Positions 1 to 11,566 of a stretch of 64,000 nt of DNA are shown here, piece after piece. Source of the stretch: a virus (Duplodnaviria > Caudoviricetes); the IMG/VR virus record IMGVR_UViG_3300035520_000529, positions 1 through 64,000 of that record. One strand, 5' to 3'. Made by a program: the position numbers and the translations under genes. The notes beneath the pieces were generated by a model. It had not been told where the DNA came from and ran no database searches. It saw nothing but the letters and a program-made list of their open reading frames with translations. Every line of letters starts with the position of its first letter. Positions within the stretch are counted from its first letter, which is position 1.

Positions 1-81
1 AACACATATCCAGTTAGGCTTTAACTCTAATATGAGAGTTCAACTCTACACATAGGATTGAATTTTGATATTAGAGTTAAA

Positions 82-114
82 GGAATGCACAGAACTCCTA
101 TAAGCTGTGCAGAA
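82..114 (+). promoter_or_regulatory. Conserved leader hairpin, copy 1
   Basis: GGAA-T-GCACAG-AACTCCTATAAG-CTGTGC-AGAA; stem ends 16 nt before ATG 127. Confidence 0.8.
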
Positions 115-126
115 TTGAGGTTATTT

Positions 127-669
127 ATGCATTACATATCTATTACTGACAAAGCAAAAATGCTACGTTCTGAAATCAAAAGCAAACTAGGACTCAACTG
201 CCGTGAGGTTAGTGTCACTACTAGTGGCGGTGGTTATGATTCCAGTATCCACGTGTATTTAAAGACCCTTAAAGCTATGACTCACTATCAAGAGGTTGAA
301 AAGTTAGCTTCTAAACTTGAACATATCGACTATGACCCTTACTGTGGTGAGGTTCTATGTGGTGGCAATACCTACGTAAATGTGGGTTGTGACCGCTCTG
401 TGCTAAGAGAATTTAGCACTAAATATCTTGAACTTGCTACTAAAGTTTACAACGAACTTACTGAGGAAACTGGTGGCAAATGTGTTCTAACTATCAATGG
501 TGTTGACTTTCATTACATTCCTAAAAGCATTTCTCATTGTTACATTAATGGTATGTGCTTTATAGACACTAATGAACGCTCTCACAAGATTAGAAGAATT
601 GCTAATTCTGTAGAAGATATAGCATTTTCTATGGGTCAGTTTGAGCTTTGCGGATATTTCTTCTGCTAA
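127..669 (+). CDS. Hypothetical early phage protein (possibly LPD-type polyvalent-associated domain)
   Basis: ORF 58..669; start moved to ATG 127 behind GAGG RBS and leader hairpin copy 1. Confidence 0.6.
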   Translation: MHYISITDKAKMLRSEIKSKLGLNCREVSVTTSGGGYDSSIHVYLKTLKAMTHYQEVEKLASKLEHIDYDPYCGEVLCGGNTYVNVGCDRSVLREFSTKYLELATKVYNELTEETGGKCVLTINGVDFHYIPKSISHCYINGMCFIDTNERSHKIRRIANSVEDIAFSMGQFELCGYFFC

Positions 670-695
670 GATTTTGATTTGTAAATTTGATTTTT

Positions 696-722
696 AACTT
701 GTACCCAACTCGGGTACAAGTT
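696..722. repeat. 27-bp palindrome, candidate parS copy 1
   Basis: AACTTGTACCC-AACTC-GGGTACAAGTT; related copies at 33930, 38473, 45619. Confidence 0.7.
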
Positions 723-730
723 CTTTAACT

Positions 731-1123
731 ATGAAAGGATTTGATTGTATGAAAAAGATTACTAAAAAAGAATTTATCGCTAAAATGGTAGCAAATGAGA
801 CCTACTTTGTGAATGTTCATAAGTATATTAACAAGCCTATTCAATCTAAACTTGAGTTTATCAACAACGAAATAGTTGAACACAAGCCTGACCTTAGCGT
901 TATGAAAACACGTACTTGTGTACAACGCTCTGCTTTTCTAGAGTTTTCCATGGGTAGTAGACTCTACTTTAATCAACAAGCAGATTACTCTTACTATGAG
1001 TTTGAAATCGATTCTCAAGAGTACCTAATCATGGTAGAAACTACTGACAATTCTAAAATTAGCACTAACTCTTGGGATGACGCTATAAGCTACTTTATGG
1101 TTTACGCTGTGAAAGGAGAATAG
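731..1123 (+). CDS. Hypothetical protein
   Basis: ORF; likely start ATG 749 after GAAAGGA. Confidence 0.65.
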   Translation: MKGFDCMKKITKKEFIAKMVANETYFVNVHKYINKPIQSKLEFINNEIVEHKPDLSVMKTRTCVQRSAFLEFSMGSRLYFNQQADYSYYEFEIDSQEYLIMVETTDNSKISTNSWDDAISYFMVYAVKGE

Positions 1124-1125
1124 TC

Positions 1126-1356
1126 ATGAGAAGATACAACATTGCACCATGCAACATTAACAAGGAGTTAGAAACCAAAACTGACTATCTAGTTTGGTTG
1201 CTATCTCAAACTATTAACACTATAAATAGCCTACCCATTGACGGCAGAGAACGTGGAGACTTAGTCTCCATGTACATGGCTAACCTACTAAATGGTATTT
1301 CCGATGACGATATACCTCGTCAAATCTATGACCAAACTATTGGACGTAGCATATAA
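1126..1356 (+). CDS. Hypothetical protein
   Basis: ORF with AAAGGAG RBS, coupled to upstream stop. Confidence 0.6.
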   Translation: MRRYNIAPCNINKELETKTDYLVWLLSQTINTINSLPIDGRERGDLVSMYMANLLNGISDDDIPRQIYDQTIGRSI

Positions 1357-1372
1357 GAAAGGAGTTTTTATT

Positions 1373-1954
1373 ATGACTAATACTAATGTTATCACTTTAA
1401 ACGCTATGGTGGACTATCTAAAGTCCACCTTAACTGAACCTACTCAGCAAGAGTTCACATCCGCTGATACATCCGTAAACAGAAACCGCCTACCTAAAGT
1501 ATTTTCTGCTATCAAGAGTTGGAAAGCAGATTCCATAAATCTTGACCTCGGTGGTGGTAAGTTTGACAACGCTACTGAGTACCTATACTCTCAATACGGC
1601 TGTACAAACCTCATATTTGATAGGTTTAACCGCTCTGTTGATTGGAATACTCAAATACTAAATTACGTCACACAAGTGGGTGGTGCTGACACCCTAACTT
1701 GTGCTAACGTTCTTAACGTCATTGCTGAAAGTGAAATCCGTTTGGAGGTTATCGCTCAAGCTTACGCTCTACTAAAAAGTGACGGCATTGCGTACTTTCA
1801 AATCTATGAGGGTAACGGCTCTGGAGTAGGTTCTCAAACTAAGATTGATTGTTGGCAAAACAACTTAAAGGCTAATGAGTATATATCCGAATTGGAAACG
1901 TATTTCAATATCGAAAAAGTCTCCAATAAGATTATCGTTTGCACTAAGAAATAG
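1373..1954 (+). CDS. Class I SAM-dependent methyltransferase, probably DNA-directed
   Basis: NLDLGGGKFD SAM motif, CANVLNVI, YFQIYEG; RBS GAAAGGAG before ATG 1373. Confidence 0.65.
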   Translation: MTNTNVITLNAMVDYLKSTLTEPTQQEFTSADTSVNRNRLPKVFSAIKSWKADSINLDLGGGKFDNATEYLYSQYGCTNLIFDRFNRSVDWNTQILNYVTQVGGADTLTCANVLNVIAESEIRLEVIAQAYALLKSDGIAYFQIYEGNGSGVGSQTKIDCWQNNLKANEYISELETYFNIEKVSNKIIVCTKK

Positions 1955-1968
1955 TTGGAGATGTAATT

Positions 1969-2553
1969 ATGAACATTAAAGAAGAAATTAAAAAATACAA
2001 TGAGGGTCTTACTCATACCATAGACATTGACGATATTCACACTATATTCAATTCTATTTTAGAAATATTCAAGGAATATCTTCCTATGCCCGAAAACATA
2101 TATCTTAGTGATAAACCACTAAATTCCGCTACTAGACTTGGTCAATGCAAAAAAGAAGTTTGGACTATGCCTAATGGTAAAGTGGTAAATTGTGTGTACA
2201 CCATATACGTTAATAAGTGTTATATTGGCGCTCCAATTACTAAAGAGGTATTTTTTGATTTGGTAAACGTTATTGGTCACGAACTACTACACACCATTGT
2301 GCAATCTCATGATGCTAACTTTACAAAGTTAGCTAATATGCTAAATCAGTATCTAGGTTTTAAAATTGAAGCACACTATACACCATCCGAAACTACAAAA
2401 CTCCTAAATACAGTTAAGCCTAAATACGAAATTAGGTGTTCAAAGTGCAATCAACTTTTGGGTTGGAAATATCACAAATGCAAAATGATTAGCCACAGTC
2501 AAGATTATACTTCTCAATGCTGTTACGCTGATATTAAAATTATAAACCTATAA
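1969..2553 (+). CDS. SprT-like zinc metallopeptidase
   Basis: LGQC, HELLH, HD..F and C-terminal YxxxCxxC zinc ribbon. Confidence 0.75.
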   Translation: MNIKEEIKKYNEGLTHTIDIDDIHTIFNSILEIFKEYLPMPENIYLSDKPLNSATRLGQCKKEVWTMPNGKVVNCVYTIYVNKCYIGAPITKEVFFDLVNVIGHELLHTIVQSHDANFTKLANMLNQYLGFKIEAHYTPSETTKLLNTVKPKYEIRCSKCNQLLGWKYHKCKMISHSQDYTSQCCYADIKIINL

Positions 2554-2564
2554 ATTAAATTCAA

Positions 2565-2597
2565 GGAACGTGGAGAACTCCTATAAACTCCACAGAA
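2565..2597 (+). promoter_or_regulatory. Conserved leader hairpin, copy 2
   Basis: GGAA-C-GTGGAG-AACTCCTATAAA-CTCCAC-AGAA; 17 nt before ATG 2611. Confidence 0.8.
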
Positions 2598-2610
2598 AGT
2601 GAGTATTACT

Positions 2611-2913
2611 ATGAAAATTACAGGTATTAAAAAGGCAGTAAGCGACTATAAAAGAGCAAATGCTGGTGGTTATTATAGCCCTAGTTATGGTAGAATGATG
2701 TTAAACCGCTCTACTGGAGAAGTATGGACAGATGAATTCTACTGTGTAGGTCATACTGATTGGAACAAATATGATGACCCTGCAATCATCAACATAGTTA
2801 CAGCTATGAATAATATAGCTTGTGATGCAGTTACAGTAACTATGCAATCAATAAAAAAAATTGCTGTAAAACTTTGTGAAGAATACGCTAAGAATAAAAC
2901 TAAAAATTCTTAG
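2611..2913 (+). CDS. Hypothetical protein
   Basis: ORF 2599..2913; ATG 2611 preferred. Confidence 0.65.
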   Translation: MKITGIKKAVSDYKRANAGGYYSPSYGRMMLNRSTGEVWTDEFYCVGHTDWNKYDDPAIINIVTAMNNIACDAVTVTMQSIKKIAVKLCEEYAKNKTKNS

Positions 2914-2928
2914 GATATTCAATAATCA

Positions 2929-2996
2929 ACTCGTTGGAGCGAGTATAAAAAGTCCGTTAGGCTCTAAGCGTTCCGCCCAATTGGGCGGAGGTCGGA
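2929..2996 (+). ncRNA. Pistol self-cleaving ribozyme A
   Basis: P1 ACUCG/CGAGU with loop UUGGAG; linker AUAAAAAG; P2 UCCG/CGGA; UUAGG; pseudoknot strand CUCUAA; GCGU; P3 UCCGCCC/GGGCGGA; GGU (predicted cut G2991/U2992). Confidence 0.9.
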
Positions 2997-3004
2997 AAAT
3001 TAAA

Positions 3005-3037
3005 GGAAAGCACAGAACTCCTTTAAACTGTGCAGAA
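3005..3037 (+). promoter_or_regulatory. Conserved leader hairpin, copy 3
   Basis: GGAA-A-GCACAG-AACTCCTTTAAA-CTGTGC-AGAA; 17 nt before ATG 3051. Confidence 0.8.
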
Positions 3038-3050
3038 AGTGAGTATCGTT

Positions 3051-3497
3051 ATGAATAAGGAAACTAAAGTTATCAATGCTATCAAGGTTTGCACTGATGG
3101 TAATATGTACCCAGTGAAGTTTAAGGAAAATTCCCTCGCTGATATGTACTCTTTGCTAAACTGTTCTAACATTGAGATTGTACACGCTATGCGTTTGAAT
3201 GGCTCTTTCTGCTTAGTCTGTGATGGAGAAGCACTATTGAAAGATTCTCCTCAAATTAACCTTTATGCAAGTTATCTATATGGCTCTGAACAACATAGGA
3301 ACTACATTTATGGAGATGTGCTAATCTGTAAAGAATACAACTTCGATGAGGATTTCGAGGACGATGAAGATGAATCCGACTTCCAATCTATGACACAAGA
3401 TGAGATTGATTACTATTTTCTACAGAAACTTTTCCTAGTTGGTAAGTTAAAAAGTTTTGCTGATGATACTGAACGTTGGCTAAAAGGACTCTTATAA
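3051..3497 (+). CDS. DUF3846-like protein
   Basis: L..MY.LLNC..IE.V, CDGE.LLK...IN..AS.LY, IYGDVLI pattern. Confidence 0.6.
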   Translation: MNKETKVINAIKVCTDGNMYPVKFKENSLADMYSLLNCSNIEIVHAMRLNGSFCLVCDGEALLKDSPQINLYASYLYGSEQHRNYIYGDVLICKEYNFDEDFEDDEDESDFQSMTQDEIDYYFLQKLFLVGKLKSFADDTERWLKGLL

Positions 3498-3511
3498 TCG
3501 CTAGTTTTTAG

Positions 3512-3540
3512 TTGACAAAATAGTATAAATTTACTATAAT
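3512..3540 (+). promoter_or_regulatory. Sigma-A promoter
   Basis: TTGACA-17-TATAAT. Confidence 0.8.
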
Positions 3541-3565
3541 ATAGCTATCAAAGGAGAGGTTTTTT

Positions 3566-4027
3566 ATGAAAAAAGTTGGATATTGTAAGTACGTTCACAA
3601 GTCAAACTTAGCTGAACTTTTAAATTCAGTTTCGGATTTAGAAAGAGAACCCATTAAAGAGCTGATTAGTCAGCATAGCACATACTGGAATTTTGAGGTG
3701 GTTAAGTACGATTCTAAGACTAAAAATCTCTCCTTAATTCAGTCTCTAAATTGGAATACTGCTAATGAGCCAACTGTTGGTGACAGTTTAATAATCAACA
3801 TAGTTACGTTGAAAATCTCTATTTCAAAAATGAAAACCCGTGAACAGATTTACCATCAAAAAGAACTTTTCGTGTCCGAAAACTACAGTGGTTTTGACGT
3901 TCAAAAGGCTAAGGCTAGGACTCAACTTTGGAAGTCAAAAATACAAAATCTTAGCCAACACAAAACTAGAATGGGTTATCGTTGGTACTGGAATGAATTG
4001 CTAGATATGTATAATATTGAGAAATAG
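3566..4027 (+). CDS. Protein resembling the accessory domain of phosphorothioation-associated methyltransferases (TIGR04096-like)
   Basis: YVHKS, VVKYD, EP.VGDS, IYHQKELFV..Y, RMG...W pattern; recognised from memory. Confidence 0.5.
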   Translation: MKKVGYCKYVHKSNLAELLNSVSDLEREPIKELISQHSTYWNFEVVKYDSKTKNLSLIQSLNWNTANEPTVGDSLIINIVTLKISISKMKTREQIYHQKELFVSENYSGFDVQKAKARTQLWKSKIQNLSQHKTRMGYRWYWNELLDMYNIEK

Positions 4028-4041
4028 TTTCCATTTTGCAC

Positions 4042-4070
4042 TTGATTTTTGTGCAAATTTATGGTACAAT
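4042..4070 (+). promoter_or_regulatory. Sigma-A promoter with TTTGCAC/GTGCAAA inverted repeat around the -35
   Basis: TTGATT-17-TACAAT, extended -10 TG. Confidence 0.6.
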
Positions 4071-4091
4071 ATTCTTAAATTTAACAGTTTT

Positions 4092-4124
4092 GGAACGTGG
4101 AGAACTCCTATAAACTCCACAGAA
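4092..4124 (+). promoter_or_regulatory. Conserved leader hairpin, copy 4
   Basis: GGAA-C-GTGGAG-AACTCCTATAAA-CTCCAC-AGAA; 17 nt before ATG 4138. Confidence 0.8.
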
Positions 4125-4137
4125 AAGGAGAATTGCC

Positions 4138-4455
4138 ATGAAAGAATTATTCGTTGTTGATGTGGATAACGGCGGTAGTATGTGGATTCCAGACGGCTCG
4201 GACATCTACGGAGACCTTATAGAAAACTATATCGAAGCTGAAAATGAGGATGCTGTCTTTAAGTACCTCGTGGACTACTTCATTAAGGGCAGTTCTGAGG
4301 TCGACTGGGGAGAAGATGGTATGCCCGATTATAAGGTCGACTACGCTAAAAAACGCATAGATTGGTGCGAAGATGAGTATCAATACCACTACATTTTTGA
4401 GATTGAACCCGTCTTTGAAGCAGACGAAAATATCCCTATAACTACCATCGACTAG
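4138..4455 (+). CDS. Small acidic hypothetical protein
   Basis: AAGGAG RBS; very D/E-rich (DNA-mimic-like composition). Confidence 0.7.
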   Translation: MKELFVVDVDNGGSMWIPDGSDIYGDLIENYIEAENEDAVFKYLVDYFIKGSSEVDWGEDGMPDYKVDYAKKRIDWCEDEYQYHYIFEIEPVFEADENIPITTID

Positions 4456-4519
4456 GCGATGTAAAATAGTCCATTAAGCCTAGTGCGTTACTCCATCCGC
4501 AGGGGTGGAGTAGGTTGGA
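4446..4519 (+). ncRNA. Pistol self-cleaving ribozyme B
   Basis: P1 CAUCG/CGAUG with loop ACUAGG; UAAAAUAG; P2 UCCA/UGGA; UUAAG; pseudoknot strand CCUAGU; GCGU; P3 UACUCCAUCC/GGGUGGAGUA; GGU (predicted cut G4514/U4515). Confidence 0.9.
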
Positions 4520-4566
4520 AAGCATATTTTTAACTCTATTTTACAAATTTTAAGGAGGTCTTTTTT

Positions 4567-6450
4567 ATGAAATTGAAAGACAAATTGAAGACTTTTTGGA
4601 TGAAAGCAATTCTCATATTTTGTTATATCCAAGGAGGCATTATAGTCATAATAGGTGGGTTGTTAACGGCAATCCTCCCTCTTGCACTGAATTTGGCAGG
4701 GTTTCCACTGGCTATTCACTGGATGGCAGACAACGTTTTTATTGGTGGAATTAAGGCTATTTTATATGTAGTTTTCATTGGAGTGGGTTCTGTTAAGTTC
4801 TTTTTAAACTTTGGTGAATCTGGAACTCCACCTTTTTGGAAGTATGTTGTTGGTGGCATTTGCAGTATATACGATAAACCCGTCAACAAATTGGAATATG
4901 AACTTCAAGTGCATAAAATTAGAGAAAAGAATAAACTCGATTATGACAAAGACTATGTAAATCCAAATAAAAAATTATCATTACTTGACAAAATAAAAAT
5001 ACATAAAAATAAAGAGATTTTTAACAGAGTATATGATAACTTTTTCCTAAGTTATGACAGCTATTTTCACATTCAGTGGGATAGGTTTGGCGACTCTAAC
5101 TCATGGTACAGATGTATGAATTACAAAGATTACAGACTTTCTTTGATTAAAAATCCATACGTTTCAGCAACCAAAAAATACAAAGAAAATAAGAAGTTGC
5201 TATTTATGGGTAAGTGTTATGGACTCGTTTCATCGCCACAAAACCCTTACAAGGATAACAAAGTTCATTCACAATACGATTTTGTTTTCTATGACCTTTA
5301 TCAAGAAAGTAAGCGTAAGCCAAACGTCTTCGCACAAAGCATTGAAAATAATGTTGATGGTGTACTATACGAGATTTTGGCAATGTTGCAAATAATATCT
5401 TGTAAAGATTTTGACGAGTATTTTTACTACAATTTACATTTTCCAATTACAAAAGATAATGTATTTGAACAAGCCGTTAATCAACAAATGGAAAATTTGC
5501 TCTTTTGGATGTATATTGACCAAGCAATGACTGTGGATTTTATTGACATTCATACGCTCCATATTGAAGATAGGTTCATTTTAATGATTAATCAGCTACA
5601 CAAAATGCACTTACTTTTCACTAACAATAACTTCATATCTTCTCAAAACTCGTTCGATTGCGACTTCCTTTATAACGAATTAGAAATTGGCGAGTACGAG
5701 CAATCCCTAATTGCTCTCGTTGAAAAAGTGCCTAAGATTGAGGAAAGCATAAAGAACCTACCTCACAAAGATAACGTCCCTTTGATGTTAGAAAAGTCGC
5801 AAATATGCTCTGATGTGTGGCTTGAATGGTATCAAAGCAAACGAAAAGACGAACTCTCCGAAAATAGTTTGTACCATGAAATTGCCGAAAGGTTCACATC
5901 TTCAATCTTTGACAAAAGTACATTTCTCACTGCCATCGTTGTAGAAGATACGAAAACTAAAAAAAGACAATTATATTTTGTTGGCGAAAAGATTCTTTTT
6001 ATGTTGGATTCAGATGAAAATAATAATGTTTTATATGATGAAATTCATTATACTATGGATACTTATCTTTATGAGCAAACCTCACACGAACGAGATTTGA
6101 ACACTATAAACGATGACCAAAAATTGAGAGAGTTTATTTTTAAGAAAGAAGTTCCAAAGCATATCTATAGCGACTTTAAAAGGGTTTGTACTTTTTTCAA
6201 CCCAAAGTATGTAAAGTTTATACATAACTTGGATAATCTAAACTATATGATTTCTAACGAGTATAAAGCAATTTGCCGTTATGAATTTCAAATGAGTTAT
6301 TCACGTTTCTTAGAAGATACGCAAAAAGAATTTAAGGAAACCATTGAAAGGTTTAGAGAAAAGTGTTTGAAAATGTATGCTAATTATGAAGAAATATATT
6401 TAGAAATTTACAATGAGGATAAAAACCAAAATGTAAACTCTGTAAATTAA
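4567..6450 (+). CDS. Hypothetical membrane-anchored protein
   Basis: AAGGAGG RBS; 2-3 hydrophobic N-terminal helices followed by a large soluble domain. Confidence 0.7.
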   Translation: MKLKDKLKTFWMKAILIFCYIQGGIIVIIGGLLTAILPLALNLAGFPLAIHWMADNVFIGGIKAILYVVFIGVGSVKFFLNFGESGTPPFWKYVVGGICSIYDKPVNKLEYELQVHKIREKNKLDYDKDYVNPNKKLSLLDKIKIHKNKEIFNRVYDNFFLSYDSYFHIQWDRFGDSNSWYRCMNYKDYRLSLIKNPYVSATKKYKENKKLLFMGKCYGLVSSPQNPYKDNKVHSQYDFVFYDLYQESKRKPNVFAQSIENNVDGVLYEILAMLQIISCKDFDEYFYYNLHFPITKDNVFEQAVNQQMENLLFWMYIDQAMTVDFIDIHTLHIEDRFILMINQLHKMHLLFTNNNFISSQNSFDCDFLYNELEIGEYEQSLIALVEKVPKIEESIKNLPHKDNVPLMLEKSQICSDVWLEWYQSKRKDELSENSLYHEIAERFTSSIFDKSTFLTAIVVEDTKTKKRQLYFVGEKILFMLDSDENNNVLYDEIHYTMDTYLYEQTSHERDLNTINDDQKLREFIFKKEVPKHIYSDFKRVCTFFNPKYVKFIHNLDNLNYMISNEYKAICRYEFQMSYSRFLEDTQKEFKETIERFREKCLKMYANYEEIYLEIYNEDKNQNVNSVN

Positions 6451-6464
6451 TAGGAGGTATTATC

Positions 6465-7337
6465 ATGAAAGAAATTAAAATGACTGTTATGGGAAACGTT
6501 GCTCTTGAGGAAACTTTTGAAAAGACACAAGAGCCTACTATCGAACCACAAAGCACAAATGTACGTCAGTTGAAGAGCAACTATATACATCGTAAATCCG
6601 ATGGTGCAGAGTACATCAAGCCTACAGCAGGTGACCCTATTAGGTCTAAGGCGGACTTAAAAGCCATCTACAAGTACTTTGAAGATGGCAGAAGTTCACA
6701 GATAGAAACTCTTAATGCACGTAATTACGCAATCTTTATCCTAGGAATATCCACTGGATTGAGAATCTCCGACTTGCTAAAAATTAAAGTCAGAGACATA
6801 ATCGACCTTAGAAAGCTTAACGCAGTTTTGAAGTCCAAACCTAAATCAAAAATCACTAAAGAGGACGATATTTTCGTGGATAGAATTTACATCTGCGAAC
6901 AGAAGACAGGTAAAATTAACAAACCAGTAATGTCAAAAAGGTGTAAAGTTTTGATATTTGACTATTTAAAGTTGGTAAAAAAAGAAGTAAAGCTTAGCTT
7001 TACTGACTACCTCTGGGTGGCTGGTGGAAATCGCACGAGCGTTAAGGTTGTGAGTAAGCCAATCGCCATGCAGAACTACTACGATGTGCTCAAAAAAATC
7101 TCAAACGAGATTGAGTTTGAAACTCCAACCCACCTATCTACGCACAGTATGAGGAAAACCTTTGGTTATTGGCTCTTCAAAAACGCATCTTCTCAAGCCG
7201 AAACTTTGGCGATTTTGCAAGAGTTGTTCAACCACAGCAACCAAAGGGTGACCCTAAGGTACATCGGTATCACTGAGGACACCAAGCTCAAAACCCTTGC
7301 TGAGTTCAGTAATCTGCTCGATGACATTTTAGAATAG
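6465..7337 (+). CDS. Tyrosine recombinase (integrase/resolvase)
   Basis: TGLRISD, EQKTGK, HSMRKT, FNHS, TLRYIG: complete R-K-H-R-H-Y set. Confidence 0.92.
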   Translation: MKEIKMTVMGNVALEETFEKTQEPTIEPQSTNVRQLKSNYIHRKSDGAEYIKPTAGDPIRSKADLKAIYKYFEDGRSSQIETLNARNYAIFILGISTGLRISDLLKIKVRDIIDLRKLNAVLKSKPKSKITKEDDIFVDRIYICEQKTGKINKPVMSKRCKVLIFDYLKLVKKEVKLSFTDYLWVAGGNRTSVKVVSKPIAMQNYYDVLKKISNEIEFETPTHLSTHSMRKTFGYWLFKNASSQAETLAILQELFNHSNQRVTLRYIGITEDTKLKTLAEFSNLLDDILE

Positions 7338-7415
7338 CTAACACGCTCGTATTCAAACGGAAATGGGTCAAAATCAAGCGTTAGTGGTTTACCCTTGAAA
7401 TCATACCCCTAAATT

Positions 7416-7451
7416 TAGAACCCTCATTTTGAGCAGATTTGGAGGGTTCTA
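7416..7451 (+). terminator. Hairpin downstream of the recombinase
   Basis: TAGAACCCTC/GAGGGTTCTA 10-bp stem, T-rich downstream. Confidence 0.45.
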
Positions 7452-7931
7452 GAGCATTTTGCTTTTTCAACAAGTATTTCCAACTAATGACAGCCCGCAA
7501 ACCACGATTCTAGCTCTATACCATTATAATATATATTTACTATCTTGAAAATTAATAAAAAACTAAAATATTAATTAAACATTAAGTATTACAAATTAGT
7601 GTATATATTAGTAAAATAATAAATATATTTTTGCAACTCTTTAATTTTCGCTCGAAAGCTTCGCATTCGAGCGATGCTGTCACACTAATCACACTAATTC
7701 AACCAATTACGTACTATCAATCACCAATTTTCGTTCCTAGCGAAGTAACTAATCATATCATCCATTCAAGCAATCGTTAAATCAATTCCCCATTTCATGA
7801 GGAAGTCTAGGTTTAAACGTGAGTTTTGGATGGGTAAACCACCAAAATTTCTACTCTCAAATTGGTTTCTCAATAAACCATAATTGGAATTAATATCTAA
7901 AATATTGTCAAGATGCTCTAACTCTAATCTC

Positions 7932-7960
7932 ATTATATCACATTTTATCTCTTTTGTCAA
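7932..7960 (-). promoter_or_regulatory. Consensus sigma-A promoter firing into an ORF-free region
   Basis: Minus-strand TTGACA-17-TATAAT with TG extension. Confidence 0.75.
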
Positions 7961-8002
7961 GTCTTTTTTAAAAATATTTTTATAAAAAGTTAGAAAAATG
8001 TC

Positions 8003-8052: not shown

Positions 8053-9945
8053 ATGAGTGATGTAATCGTTAATTTTGGTTCACATATAGTTCCATGTTCT
8101 AAGCTTGATGAAAACTTCTATTTGGGTAACATAAAGCTTAGAGATATTATCAAGTTAAAGACGTGTTTTCGTGATTTTAACAAGTATCCAATAAAAAAGA
8201 CTGAGGTTAAAACTCACTGTGAAAAGATACTTGAATGTGTAAAAAAAGGTACATTAAGACCTAATACTTTAAGCTTTCAAGCTTCCGAATTTTACTTCCA
8301 AGCTGAGAACGTTCTGCTCGTAAACAAGCTTGAGGTTGACTATCAAAAGTTGGTGCTTTTAAAAGTGTCTGAAGAGTGTGAATCCACACAAATATGTGTT
8401 CCCTTTGTATTAGAGTTGTATGATAAATCCAAAGCCTATGAGAGTATCGACAGTATCATAAATAGCAAAGATTTACAATTATTGAATGAAAAGACAACCA
8501 TGTTCAATGCCCTATTATCGAAGTCATACCTACTTACCGAATTTTACACTATGCTAAAAAACAGGTATGATTACAACATCGAAAACCAAGTAGTGGAAAT
8601 ATTGACATACTACCTCTCCCAGACAGATTTAACGAGAGAAACCCTTTATAACTACATAGATACGTTATTAGACAGTGAAACTTTCAAAGAGTATTTTTCA
8701 AATTGCAATCACTTAAACAATCCATCTATTACAAATTTGGAAAGTCTCACAAATAACGTAATTCTGTTTGTTTTTAAGTTTGTAGCTGTTAGCAAAGAAA
8801 ATTCAAAAAGCAACTTGGAGTTCATAACATCGCAGTTTATGGATGAAATCTTTAAAGAGGTTGACTATCCGAAGTCTAAAGTTGAAATTGCAAACATTGT
8901 GAAAGATATTTGCAATAACGAATCAGCGATTTTGAAAAGTTTAACAAATAAGAATCTCTATAACTCACACCAAAAAATCGAATTTATAGAAGACTCTTAT
9001 AGGCAAAATCCCGATAAGTTTTACAACTGCGTAATTGACCAAACTAAGTCCTTTGAGGAGATTTCTCGTCATGAAAAGAAACTCCAAAAGGATTTACTAG
9101 AGTTTTCTATTGAGGAGATTGTGGAACTCTTAAAGAACTTTAACTCTAGCATTACGATGGTTGCAAAGTACAAAACACTGATAAGAAAGTATTTTGAATG
9201 GGGTAAAAATCATAGGCTAATCGAACCCTCCAAGGTTATGGAACTTAATAATTTGAAAAAAGAAAAGTTTGTAAACTCACAAAATAGAAACGTTTGTAAG
9301 TTTTTCTTAACCGAAAATGACTACGCTTCAGCAATGGAGAGGATGTATCACCACTCGAACAACCTAAAAGTTAAGCAGTTTATAATTTCATTTTTCTTTA
9401 ATTCTGTTGGAATCTCTCAAGAGAACATCCGCACAGTTACGTTGTTTAACTATAAGGACATTCTAGAAAAAGGTCTCGCTTTGGAAATTAGAGGAGAAGT
9501 TTTTGAAATGAAAACCATTTTAAACTCTGCTTTGAGAATATGTGAATACTTTATTGAACATGACCGCAATGAGGACTATCGCATTAAGGATACCGACTTT
9601 TTGATATGTTCTCACGGAGTGAACAACAGCACAAAAAACACGCATTTTCCAAGCGTTTTGGTCGATTTAAACCAAAGCCACGTGATTCCTTACACAATCT
9701 CACCTAAAACGATAACTCCTAGTAACCTTGAACAATGTGTCAAATTCATCGCATTTGAGCAGTATCTAATCAAAAATAATTTGGATGTTCATTCCACAAA
9801 CAGTGATATTAGGCGAGAAATCTCTTTGACCTACAAAGAATTTTTTAATGTGAAAGAGTCCGTTTCAAACGCTTTAGTGTTCTCTGGGTACGTTAATGCG
9901 AGGTTTGTAAACGAGTTTCTCGATTTTAAAAATAGTGTTGATTAA
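8053..9945 (+). CDS. Putative lysogeny regulator: N-terminal YopQ/DndB-like domain fused to a YopR/MrpR-like degenerate recombinase fold
   Basis: N-term FYLG.I...DI...G.L.PNTLS; from aa ~302 LYN..QK.EF...E....KDL.EFS.EEI..LL..FN.S...Y...I.KYF.W; no catalytic RHRY. Confidence 0.5.
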   Translation: MSDVIVNFGSHIVPCSKLDENFYLGNIKLRDIIKLKTCFRDFNKYPIKKTEVKTHCEKILECVKKGTLRPNTLSFQASEFYFQAENVLLVNKLEVDYQKLVLLKVSEECESTQICVPFVLELYDKSKAYESIDSIINSKDLQLLNEKTTMFNALLSKSYLLTEFYTMLKNRYDYNIENQVVEILTYYLSQTDLTRETLYNYIDTLLDSETFKEYFSNCNHLNNPSITNLESLTNNVILFVFKFVAVSKENSKSNLEFITSQFMDEIFKEVDYPKSKVEIANIVKDICNNESAILKSLTNKNLYNSHQKIEFIEDSYRQNPDKFYNCVIDQTKSFEEISRHEKKLQKDLLEFSIEEIVELLKNFNSSITMVAKYKTLIRKYFEWGKNHRLIEPSKVMELNNLKKEKFVNSQNRNVCKFFLTENDYASAMERMYHHSNNLKVKQFIISFFFNSVGISQENIRTVTLFNYKDILEKGLALEIRGEVFEMKTILNSALRICEYFIEHDRNEDYRIKDTDFLICSHGVNNSTKNTHFPSVLVDLNQSHVIPYTISPKTITPSNLEQCVKFIAFEQYLIKNNLDVHSTNSDIRREISLTYKEFFNVKESVSNALVFSGYVNARFVNEFLDFKNSVD

Positions 9946-9991
9946 CCCCATCAAATATAGTATAATTATATTAAAACAAGGAGGAATGATT

Positions 9992-11566
9992 ATGGGAATA
10001 TATTTGAATCCAAACAATTCGGACTTTAAAGAGAGTCTAAACAGTGAAATCTACGTAGATAAGTCTATGCTTATCAGCAAAGTAAACAATATCATTGATA
10101 CTAAACAAAAATACGTTTGCATTAGCAGACCTAGACGTTTTGGAAAATCCATGACGTTAGAAATGCTCAACGCTTATTATAGCTCTGGTTGTGACTCTAA
10201 AGAACTATTCCAAGATTTGAAAATCTCTCAAGATGGTAGCTTTGAAAAACATTTAAATAAGTTTAACACCATTATGTTGAATGTTCAAGAATTTTATAGT
10301 GATAACAATAATTCCATCGATGAAATGATAGAAGATATTACAGAAACCCTAAAAACTGAAATGCTTAAACAGTATCCAAATCTTGACTACATTAGCAAAG
10401 ATAGGTTGGTTAGGGTAATGAATACTATATATACAGAAACTGGCACATCGTTTATCTTTCTCATTGACGAATGGGACTGTATTTTTAGAGTCAGCAAGAA
10501 TGACAGCAAGTCCCAAGAGAAGTATCTTGACTTCCTTAGAAACCTCTTAAAGGATAAAAAGTACGTATCTTTGGCTTATATGACTGGTATACTTCCCATC
10601 AAAAAGTATGGTGTACACTCAGCTTTGAATATGTTTACTGAGGTATCTATGACTGATGTTAGAGAGTTTGCGGAATACACTGGCTTTACTGAAGATGAAG
10701 TTAAGGAACTTTGTAATCGCTACAGTATGAGTTTTGAAGACACTAAAAAGTGGTATAATGGTTATAATTTGGAGGGTGTTGCTATATATAATCCTCGTTC
10801 GGTAGTTATGTCAATGACTGGCAGAAAGTTCAATAGCTATTGGACTCAAACAGAAACCTACGAAGCTCTAAAGGTCTATATATCCATGAACTTTGAGGGT
10901 TTGCGTGACGTAATCGTTCAGCTTATAGCAGGTGGAACTTACAAAATTGATACTGGAACGTTCTCCAACGATATGACTACCTTTAACCGCTTAGATGACG
11001 TACTTACGTTGTTAGTGCATTTGGGATACCTATCCTATAACTTTGATACCCAAGAAGTTAGGATTCCTAACTACGAAATCTCTAAGGAGTTTGTGAACGT
11101 AATCGAAATTTCAAAATGGAATGAGACTATCAAGGCTATTAAGCAATCCATGGATTTGCTAGAAGATACGTGGCTTTTGAAAGAGAATAAAGTCGCAAAG
11201 GCTATTGAAGACGTGCACCAAGAGAACACTTCCATAATTAAGTATAATAACGAAAACTCACTATCCTGCGTGGTTTCGTTGGCATACTACAGTGCTAAGG
11301 AATACTACAGTGTAATCCGAGAGCTTCCAACGGGTAAGGGTTTCGCTGACATCGTTATGATACCTCACAAGAACCACCTCGACAAACCTGCTATGGTGAT
11401 TGAATTAAAGTTTGACAAGAACGTAGATACGGCAATCAAGCAGATTTTGAGGAAAGAGTACACGCAATCACTTAAAAACTATAAAGGTGACATCTTGTTG
11501 GTTGGTATTAACTACAATAAAATCACTAAAGCACACACTTGCAAGATTATCAAGGTTACTAAGTAG
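9992..11566 (+). CDS. AAA-ATPase-like + PD-(D/E)XK nuclease protein (DUF1703/PDDEXK_9 type)
   Basis: RPRRFGKS, IDEWD, RELPTGKGFADI...IELK; own promoter TTGATT-17-TATAAT at 9938-9966. Confidence 0.88.
   Translation: MGIYLNPNNSDFKESLNSEIYVDKSMLISKVNNIIDTKQKYVCISRPRRFGKSMTLEMLNAYYSSGCDSKELFQDLKISQDGSFEKHLNKFNTIMLNVQEFYSDNNNSIDEMIEDITETLKTEMLKQYPNLDYISKDRLVRVMNTIYTETGTSFIFLIDEWDCIFRVSKNDSKSQEKYLDFLRNLLKDKKYVSLAYMTGILPIKKYGVHSALNMFTEVSMTDVREFAEYTGFTEDEVKELCNRYSMSFEDTKKWYNGYNLEGVAIYNPRSVVMSMTGRKFNSYWTQTETYEALKVYISMNFEGLRDVIVQLIAGGTYKIDTGTFSNDMTTFNRLDDVLTLLVHLGYLSYNFDTQEVRIPNYEISKEFVNVIEISKWNETIKAIKQSMDLLEDTWLLKENKVAKAIEDVHQENTSIIKYNNENSLSCVVSLAYYSAKEYYSVIRELPTGKGFADIVMIPHKNHLDKPAMVIELKFDKNVDTAIKQILRKEYTQSLKNYKGDILLVGINYNKITKAHTCKIIKVTK

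Follow-up and report, generated by a model that had tools for sequence, protein, structure and literature searches.

Overlap of a phage pistol ribozyme with the stop codon of the preceding reading frame: a probable case of intercistronic RNA processing

When a phage reading frame runs into a self-cleaving ribozyme and terminates inside it, does translation of that frame govern cleavage, or does the overlap reflect the way in which such ribozymes are packed between genes? The question is raised by a short segment of the window, by which we mean the whole 64,000-nucleotide stretch of viral DNA analysed here, where a predicted pistol ribozyme carries the stop codon of the upstream open reading frame within its first loop and is followed by the gene for a putative membrane protein. 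The preliminary description of the locus proposed that a terminating ribosome would unfold P1 and the pseudoknot, so that both cleavage and what becomes of the downstream message would be coupled to translation of the upstream gene.

The virus record to which the window belongs is estimated to be 64% complete, has a G+C content of 34%, and encodes an anaerobic ribonucleotide reductase as well as a RecD-like helicase whose nearest relatives are those of Enterocloster, Thomasclavelia, Brevibacillus and SPbeta-like Staphylococcus phages. Its source is likely a large, temperate-type, SPbeta-like phage of Bacillota that is uncultured; pistols were found in none of the four genomes searched of phages distantly related by this helicase (Enterocloster, Thomasclavelia and Brevibacillus). 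Positions 1-4566 hold a series of small same-strand genes, mostly orphan and one with a DUF3846 domain, and two tyrosine recombinases come next, namely a phage integrase of 290 aa (6465-7337) and a 630-aa protein with an MrpR-type core-binding domain (8053-9945), after which an AAA-ATPase with a PD-(D/E)XK nuclease domain is encoded at 9935-11566.

Identity and architecture of pistol ribozyme B

An Rfam cmscan search assigns positions 4446-4519 (+ strand) to the Pistol family (RF02679) with 60.9 bits (E = 1.2e-08; curated gathering threshold, 34.5 bits) and an alignment that spans the model completely, from position 1 to 68, and the same element is recovered by a structural descriptor. Across the entire 108-kb virus record Rfam detects two pistols in total, this one (pistol B) and pistol A at 2929-2996 (+; 72.7 bits). 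No other RNA family is matched by Rfam in the 64-kb window, and a permissive sub-threshold scan of positions 1-8000 likewise returned nothing besides the two pistols.

With P1, the pseudoknot, the roles of the core letters and the cleavage site defined as published for the class (PMC6154101), P1 of pistol B pairs CAUCG (4446-4450) with CGAUG (4457-4461) and closes the loop ACUAGG (4451-4456), which forms a 6-bp pseudoknot of six Watson-Crick pairs with the 3' strand CCUAGU (4479-4484). Between the two pseudoknot strands, downstream of P1, lie an A-rich linker (4462-4469, which contains AAAUAG), the 5' strand of P2 (UCCA, 4470-4473, which pairs with UGGA at 4516-4519) and the segment UUAAG (4474-4478), and the pseudoknot is followed by GCG (4485-4487) and by P3 (4488-4495 with 4506-4513), for which the Rfam alignment gives 8 pairs and a nested fold up to 11. 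P2 and P3 flank the G4514-U4515 junction, the predicted scissile step, which by its Rfam alignment columns is equivalent to G53-U54 of env25. The core letters align to uppercase consensus columns throughout: the UUAR element is UUAA (4474-4477), the purine at position 32 is A4477, and G33, G40, C41 and G42 correspond to G4478, G4485, C4486 and G4487, respectively.

The same elements, in the same order and with the same catalytic-core letters, are found in the RF02679 pistols of env25, Lysinibacillus sphaericus and Paenibacillus polymyxa, and known pistols likewise occur in Bacillota phages beside genes without assigned functions (PMC4604425, PMC6154101). Pistol B departs from them in two linker letters, UA at 4462-4463 where the Rfam consensus has AU, and in a longer P3 loop, and is otherwise structurally unremarkable. 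Judged by its sequence, 4446-4519 is a genuine member of the pistol family, an identification that we regard as secure, and it is an active-looking one, with cleavage predicted between G4514 and U4515.

Pistol A provides the natural comparator. There, P1 is ACUCG/CGAGU, the pseudoknot UUGGAG/CUCUAA, P2 UCCG/CGGA and P3 UCCGCCC/GGGCGGA; every one of these helices is changed on both strands in pistol B and pairing is nonetheless kept throughout, so that the designation of pistol B as a second, fully compensatory pistol is correct. With a score 12 bits below that of pistol A and a longer P3 loop, pistol B shows two features that would suit an inactive relic, a decaying copy or a structured spacer; set against such a reading, its helices, its pseudoknot and its core letters are all preserved, at 60.9 bits, and decay would be expected to break these features. 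Folded in isolation, the 74-mer has a nested minimum-free-energy structure in which an extended pseudoknot-helix hairpin is favoured over P1, so the order of folding could matter.

The upstream reading frame and the transcription unit

The open reading frame at 4138-4455 (+) encodes a 105-aa orphan protein of pI 4.05, and its last codons and stop lie within the ribozyme. As the preliminary description had it, the UAG stop sits in the pseudoknot-forming loop: TAG 4453-4455, in frame with the ORF, occupies P1 loop positions 3-5 and is part of the pseudoknot, and most of the 5' strand of P1, together with the first two loop bases, is made up of the final sense codons, ACC AUC GAC.

It is this geometry that brings translation-gated cleavage into consideration, a reading in which ribosomes travelling to the UAG or halted at it would hold P1 and the pseudoknot open and only ribosome-free or untranslated RNA would be cut. 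How much membrane-protein mRNA is present, or how stable it is, would then be tied, by a link that we also consider unlikely, to translation of the acidic upstream protein. A ribosome with a stop codon in its A site covers, within its mRNA channel, ~11-15 nt past the first base of the P site. By these established footprint and helicase positions, a ribosome with the UAG of ORF 4138-4455 in its A site would cover the RNA to ~4461-4465 and hence all of P1, so that neither P1 nor the pseudoknot could form at that moment; the competing nested structure, moreover, could make the folding of pistol B sensitive to such a hold on the 5' strand. The geometry is therefore plausible, but the predicted cut is 59 nt 3' of the stop codon (with a further 52 nt to the start codon of the next gene), and on the balance of this and the evidence given below we judge gating of cleavage by translation to be unlikely.

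ORF 4138-4455 looks like a real gene. Its ATG is preceded by an AAAGGAG Shine-Dalgarno sequence and stands in register with the ATGs of three other leader-bearing genes, a promoter-like site lies upstream, the ORF is the sole long coding-strand frame at that place, and a 105-codon open frame is unlikely to arise by chance at 34% G+C. The predicted product is strongly acidic (28 D/E versus 7 K/R) and matches no Pfam or PHROG family. No homologue was found in IMG/VR by pattern scan and tblastn, a word-indexed protein search returned the protein itself as the single match, and a full HMMER search against 1.8 billion representatives retrieved merely two long repetitive proteins; there were no relatives in cultured phages, nor in metagenome contigs. 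An AlphaFold model computed without an alignment is poor (mean pLDDT 53). This orphan status and the poor model are also what an untranslated frame would give, in which case, just as with an inactive ribozyme, the overlap would be meaningless; weighed against the good Shine-Dalgarno sequence, the register of the ATG, the promoter-like site, the improbability of so long an open frame and the intact ribozyme, we hold this to be very improbable.

Two observations on the protein are noted in passing. Its gene lies in an early-type region, next to the DUF3846 gene at 3051-3497, and its acidic composition recalls, by analogy, that of DNA-mimic anti-restriction proteins.

The upstream gene was also said to carry the fourth copy of a leader, and it does. 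Leader hairpins are found at 77-114, 2560-2597, 3000-3037 and 4087-4124, with stems that covary between copies (GCACAG/CUGUGC or GUGGAG/CUCCAC), a conserved loop that contains AACUCCU and a fixed distance to the start codons. A 59-nt repeat family aligns copies 2-4 through the ATG and a 38-nt family brings in copy 1 (77-114). Copy 4 (4087-4124, +; stem GUGGAG/CUCCAC; repeat families D1 and D2) precedes ORF 4138-4455 in register with the other copies. The hairpin matches no Rfam family, even at E values up to 1. Copy 3 begins at position 3000, 9 nt past the predicted pistol A cut, and would therefore sit near the new 5' end created there.

Further upstream, a consensus scan identified a promoter-like site at 4042-4070 (+; TTGATT, 17 nt, TG-TACAAT; 9/12 matches, with an extended -10 TG), 5' of leader copy 4. 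The site, a pattern match, likely marks the start of a bicistronic transcript. The same scan found no promoter-like or terminator-like site on the + strand of 4070-4891. Given that none intervenes between 4070 and 4567, the downstream mRNA should always include the ribozyme and begin at U4515 once cleaved; in other words, the downstream gene apparently has no promoter of its own, and the ribozyme should make the 5' end of its mRNA.

The downstream gene (4567-6450, +) encodes a 627-aa product without a family match, and the expectation of a membrane protein is upheld in the form of predicted N-terminal membrane helices, with hydrophobic segments at approximately residues 9-85. Its AU-rich 5' UTR after cleavage would be 52 nt long (4515-4566) and contains a strong AAGGAGG Shine-Dalgarno sequence at 4552-4558. 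No homologues of the 627-aa protein were found in IMG/VR or cultured phages, and megablast of 2500-6500 against phages gave no match. The 27-nt AT-rich segment between pistol B and this Shine-Dalgarno sequence (4525-4551) shares 74-81% identity with 2043-2069 and 7952-7978, a likeness that may be due to chance in AT-rich DNA.

Pistols and upstream stop codons across phage sequences

A 23-letter pistol pattern matched at least 119 loci in IMG/VR against ~0.1 chance matches expected, so that the pistol match is not due to chance, and a structural descriptor based on complementarity in P1 and the pseudoknot yielded 143 pistols, 124 of them non-redundant. The survey covers pistols with UCG...CGA in P1, and its reading frames are raw, uncurated ORFs no shorter than 60 aa. 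When 18 of the loci were sampled, all of the descriptor-found pistols were confirmed by Rfam, which detected additional ones.

For 97 of the 124 pistols, an ORF of 60 aa or more ends nearby on the same strand, and in 75 of the 124 (60%) the stop falls at -15 to +29 relative to the first base of P1, as against 8.4% for random positions on the same loci and strand; abutment or overlap with an upstream stop codon is thus ~7 times more frequent for phage pistols than for random positions. Of the 97 upstream ORFs, 23 terminate within the ribozyme, with the three frames used about equally: seven stops are at +7, as in pistol B, four at +17 (the linker UAA), five at +21 (the linker UAG) and the others at +2, +5, +16, +28, +29 and +64. 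Another 15 stop codons enter the first one or two bases of P1 (offsets -2 and -1) and five are flush against it (offset -3). The stop precedes the cut in all surveyed cases bar one, so that the upstream ORF survives cleavage, and among the 76 pistols for which a next ORF was found within ~400 nt, it starts no more than 60 nt past the cut in 48, mostly at a distance of 20-50 nt.

The overlap of pistol B with a stop codon is therefore real but recurrent among phage pistols, and a single overlap of this kind is ordinary. In the literature searched, we found no earlier description of an upstream stop in a pistol P1 loop.

The seven ORFs with a +7 stop are mutually unrelated, with ends that are encoded by P1 (V, I or L, then D or V, then the stop), and no PHROG family was found for upstream ORFs that stop inside pistols. 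Unrelated upstream frames without a PHROG family, as well as the occurrence of pistol arrays amid small orphan ORFs in many phage contigs (L207, L197 and L192), would also be accommodated if pistols marked the borders of exchangeable cassettes, with the ORF-end overlaps as recombination junctions and RNA cleavage as a secondary matter. We find this scarcely credible: covarying helices and conserved catalytic letters point to selection on the RNA fold rather than on DNA identity, the contiguous identity between pistols A and B is too little for homologous exchange, and cassette swapping was not observed.

The survey bears on translation gating from both sides. The ACUAGG/CCUAGU pseudoknot is present in ten pistols, eight of them from phage contigs (pistol B included) and two from Bacillota genomes, and in 3 of the 10 only does its UAG terminate an ORF of 50 aa or more, with the upstream stops of the other seven at -77, -62, -14, -2, -2, +21 and +21; this pseudoknot, in other words, mostly does without its TAG as a stop. 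Nor does a conserved or preferred stop position within the ribozyme emerge from the 97 pistols, as the stops range over -15 to +29, occur in every frame and show no strong preference for the loop; for pistol A, which belongs to the same operon, the upstream stop (TAG 2911-2913) lies 18 nt 5' of P1, at offset -18. All of this speaks against gating by translation. Ribosome contact with P1, on the other hand, is the rule: the upstream stop falls at -12 to +29 in ~70 of the 97 pistols and within ribosome reach of P1 in ~56%, and clustering of stops near P1 is predicted by a family-wide interplay of ribosome and ribozyme as well. In a softer form of gating, the ribosome would act as a folding chaperone or timer. 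That a terminating ribosome times or chaperones folding across the family, with the cut made only once the upstream cistron has been read, is in our view improbable; if it were true, pistols would be translation-sensing mRNA processors, and the class would have its first defined biological logic.

Stop triplets in the loop were also counted on their own. Loop positions 3-5 read TGA, TAA or TAG in 49 of the 124 P1 loops (~33 expected from per-position base use), with TGA alone accounting for 34 versus ~19 expected; we set this enrichment aside as a signal, as the excess is modest and the statistic ignores kinship.

Probable intercistronic processing and its known parallels

Pistol B is probably a constitutive intercistronic processing ribozyme into which the end of the upstream ORF happens to read, and the locus represents a clean case of a typical layout, with an upstream stop, a ribozyme, a short leader and the next gene. 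The family-level placement statistic supports such a role. Family membership, the integrity of the helices, the overlap and its recurrence across the family are established, and from the sequence we infer cleavage, co-transcription and the fates of the two products. Transcripts would probably start at 4042-4070 or farther upstream and take in the ORF for the acidic protein, the pistol and the gene of the membrane protein, whereupon the ribozyme would fold and cleave its own chain between G4514 and U4515. Of the two products, the upstream one would retain the full ORF with its stop codon, followed by the folded P1/pseudoknot/P3 body and a 2',3'-cyclic phosphate end, and the membrane-protein mRNA would begin with a 5'-hydroxyl at U4515 and carry the 52-nt leader with its strong Shine-Dalgarno sequence. 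Since such a self-cut yields two separate products, each cistron would acquire its own stability and expression level.

In this constitutive processing scheme the stop codon in the loop is best explained as a by-product of packing rather than as a dedicated sensor. An upstream frame without an earlier stop would run into the ribozyme and end at the first in-frame stop triplet that it meets; the linker UAA and UAG cover two frames and a third-frame stop is present in ~40% of loops, and pistols that combine a loop stop with the linker UAA and UAG close all three frames before the cut. Because pistols cut near their own 3' end, creep of an ORF into the ribozyme would be harmless.

RNA polymerase in Bacillota tends to outrun the lead ribosome, a general property that counts against translation gating, as does the speed of the reaction. 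Pistols, a phage-associated class, cleave at ~10 per min or faster under physiological conditions (PMC4604425), and at such rates the departure of a ribosome would be followed by cleavage within seconds. The RNA can thus be expected to fold and cut between ribosomes, and translation would probably delay the reaction by seconds only. The placement statistic defines a direct experiment on the influence of ribosomes over cleavage.

Precedent for coding sequence that enters a ribozyme comes from phage group I introns, in which ORF ends overlap the ribozyme core, a phenomenon termed 'core creep' (PMC3073962). As in the T4 td intron with I-TevI, the 3' end of a coding frame extends here into ribozyme sequence, and in introns of that type in-frame stops exclude ribosomes from the core, where their occupancy can disturb folding (PMC3073962). 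That splicing is blocked when ribosomes move into the core, and that folding is helped by those translating the upstream exon (PMC3073962), favours the gated reading by precedent; group I introns, however, are large, self-splicing and intragenic, whereas pistol B is a 74-nt, predicted self-cleaving, intergenic element.

A second parallel is the glmS ribozyme: in B. subtilis, RNase J1 degrades its 5'-hydroxyl product (PMC11780869, citing Collins et al. 2007). Pistol B would likewise leave a 5'-hydroxyl on the downstream mRNA, an end that in Bacillota is known to give RNase J1 access, and the strong Shine-Dalgarno sequence may counter such entry. Attack by RNase J1 is a plausible means for pistol B to adjust membrane-protein mRNA levels. 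The glmS ribozyme is metabolite-dependent and resides in a 5' UTR, whereas pistol B is intercistronic. To our knowledge, pistols have no known ligand.

A third parallel is that of bacterial and phage hammerhead and twister ribozymes, for which processing of polycistronic transcripts has been proposed (PMC6765202). Like pistol B, these occur between co-directional genes near phage genes, and differing stabilities of the separated cistrons have been put forward for them (PMC6765202); they belong to other ribozyme classes, and the processing role is likewise a proposal there.

Several of the surveyed phage contigs carry arrays of ribozymes on a single strand between small orphan ORFs, with seven pistols in 4.3 kb at positions 306-4313 of L207, five at 2399-4650 of L197, four at 2110-4229 of L220, and two pistols together with two type-P5 twisters in 2.2 kb at 2993-5135 of L192. 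At 5992-6497 of another contig, L225, the TGA of a 167-aa ORF starts at the U just past the predicted pistol cut (+64); if this ORF is real, cleavage would strip the stop codon and leave a non-stop message.
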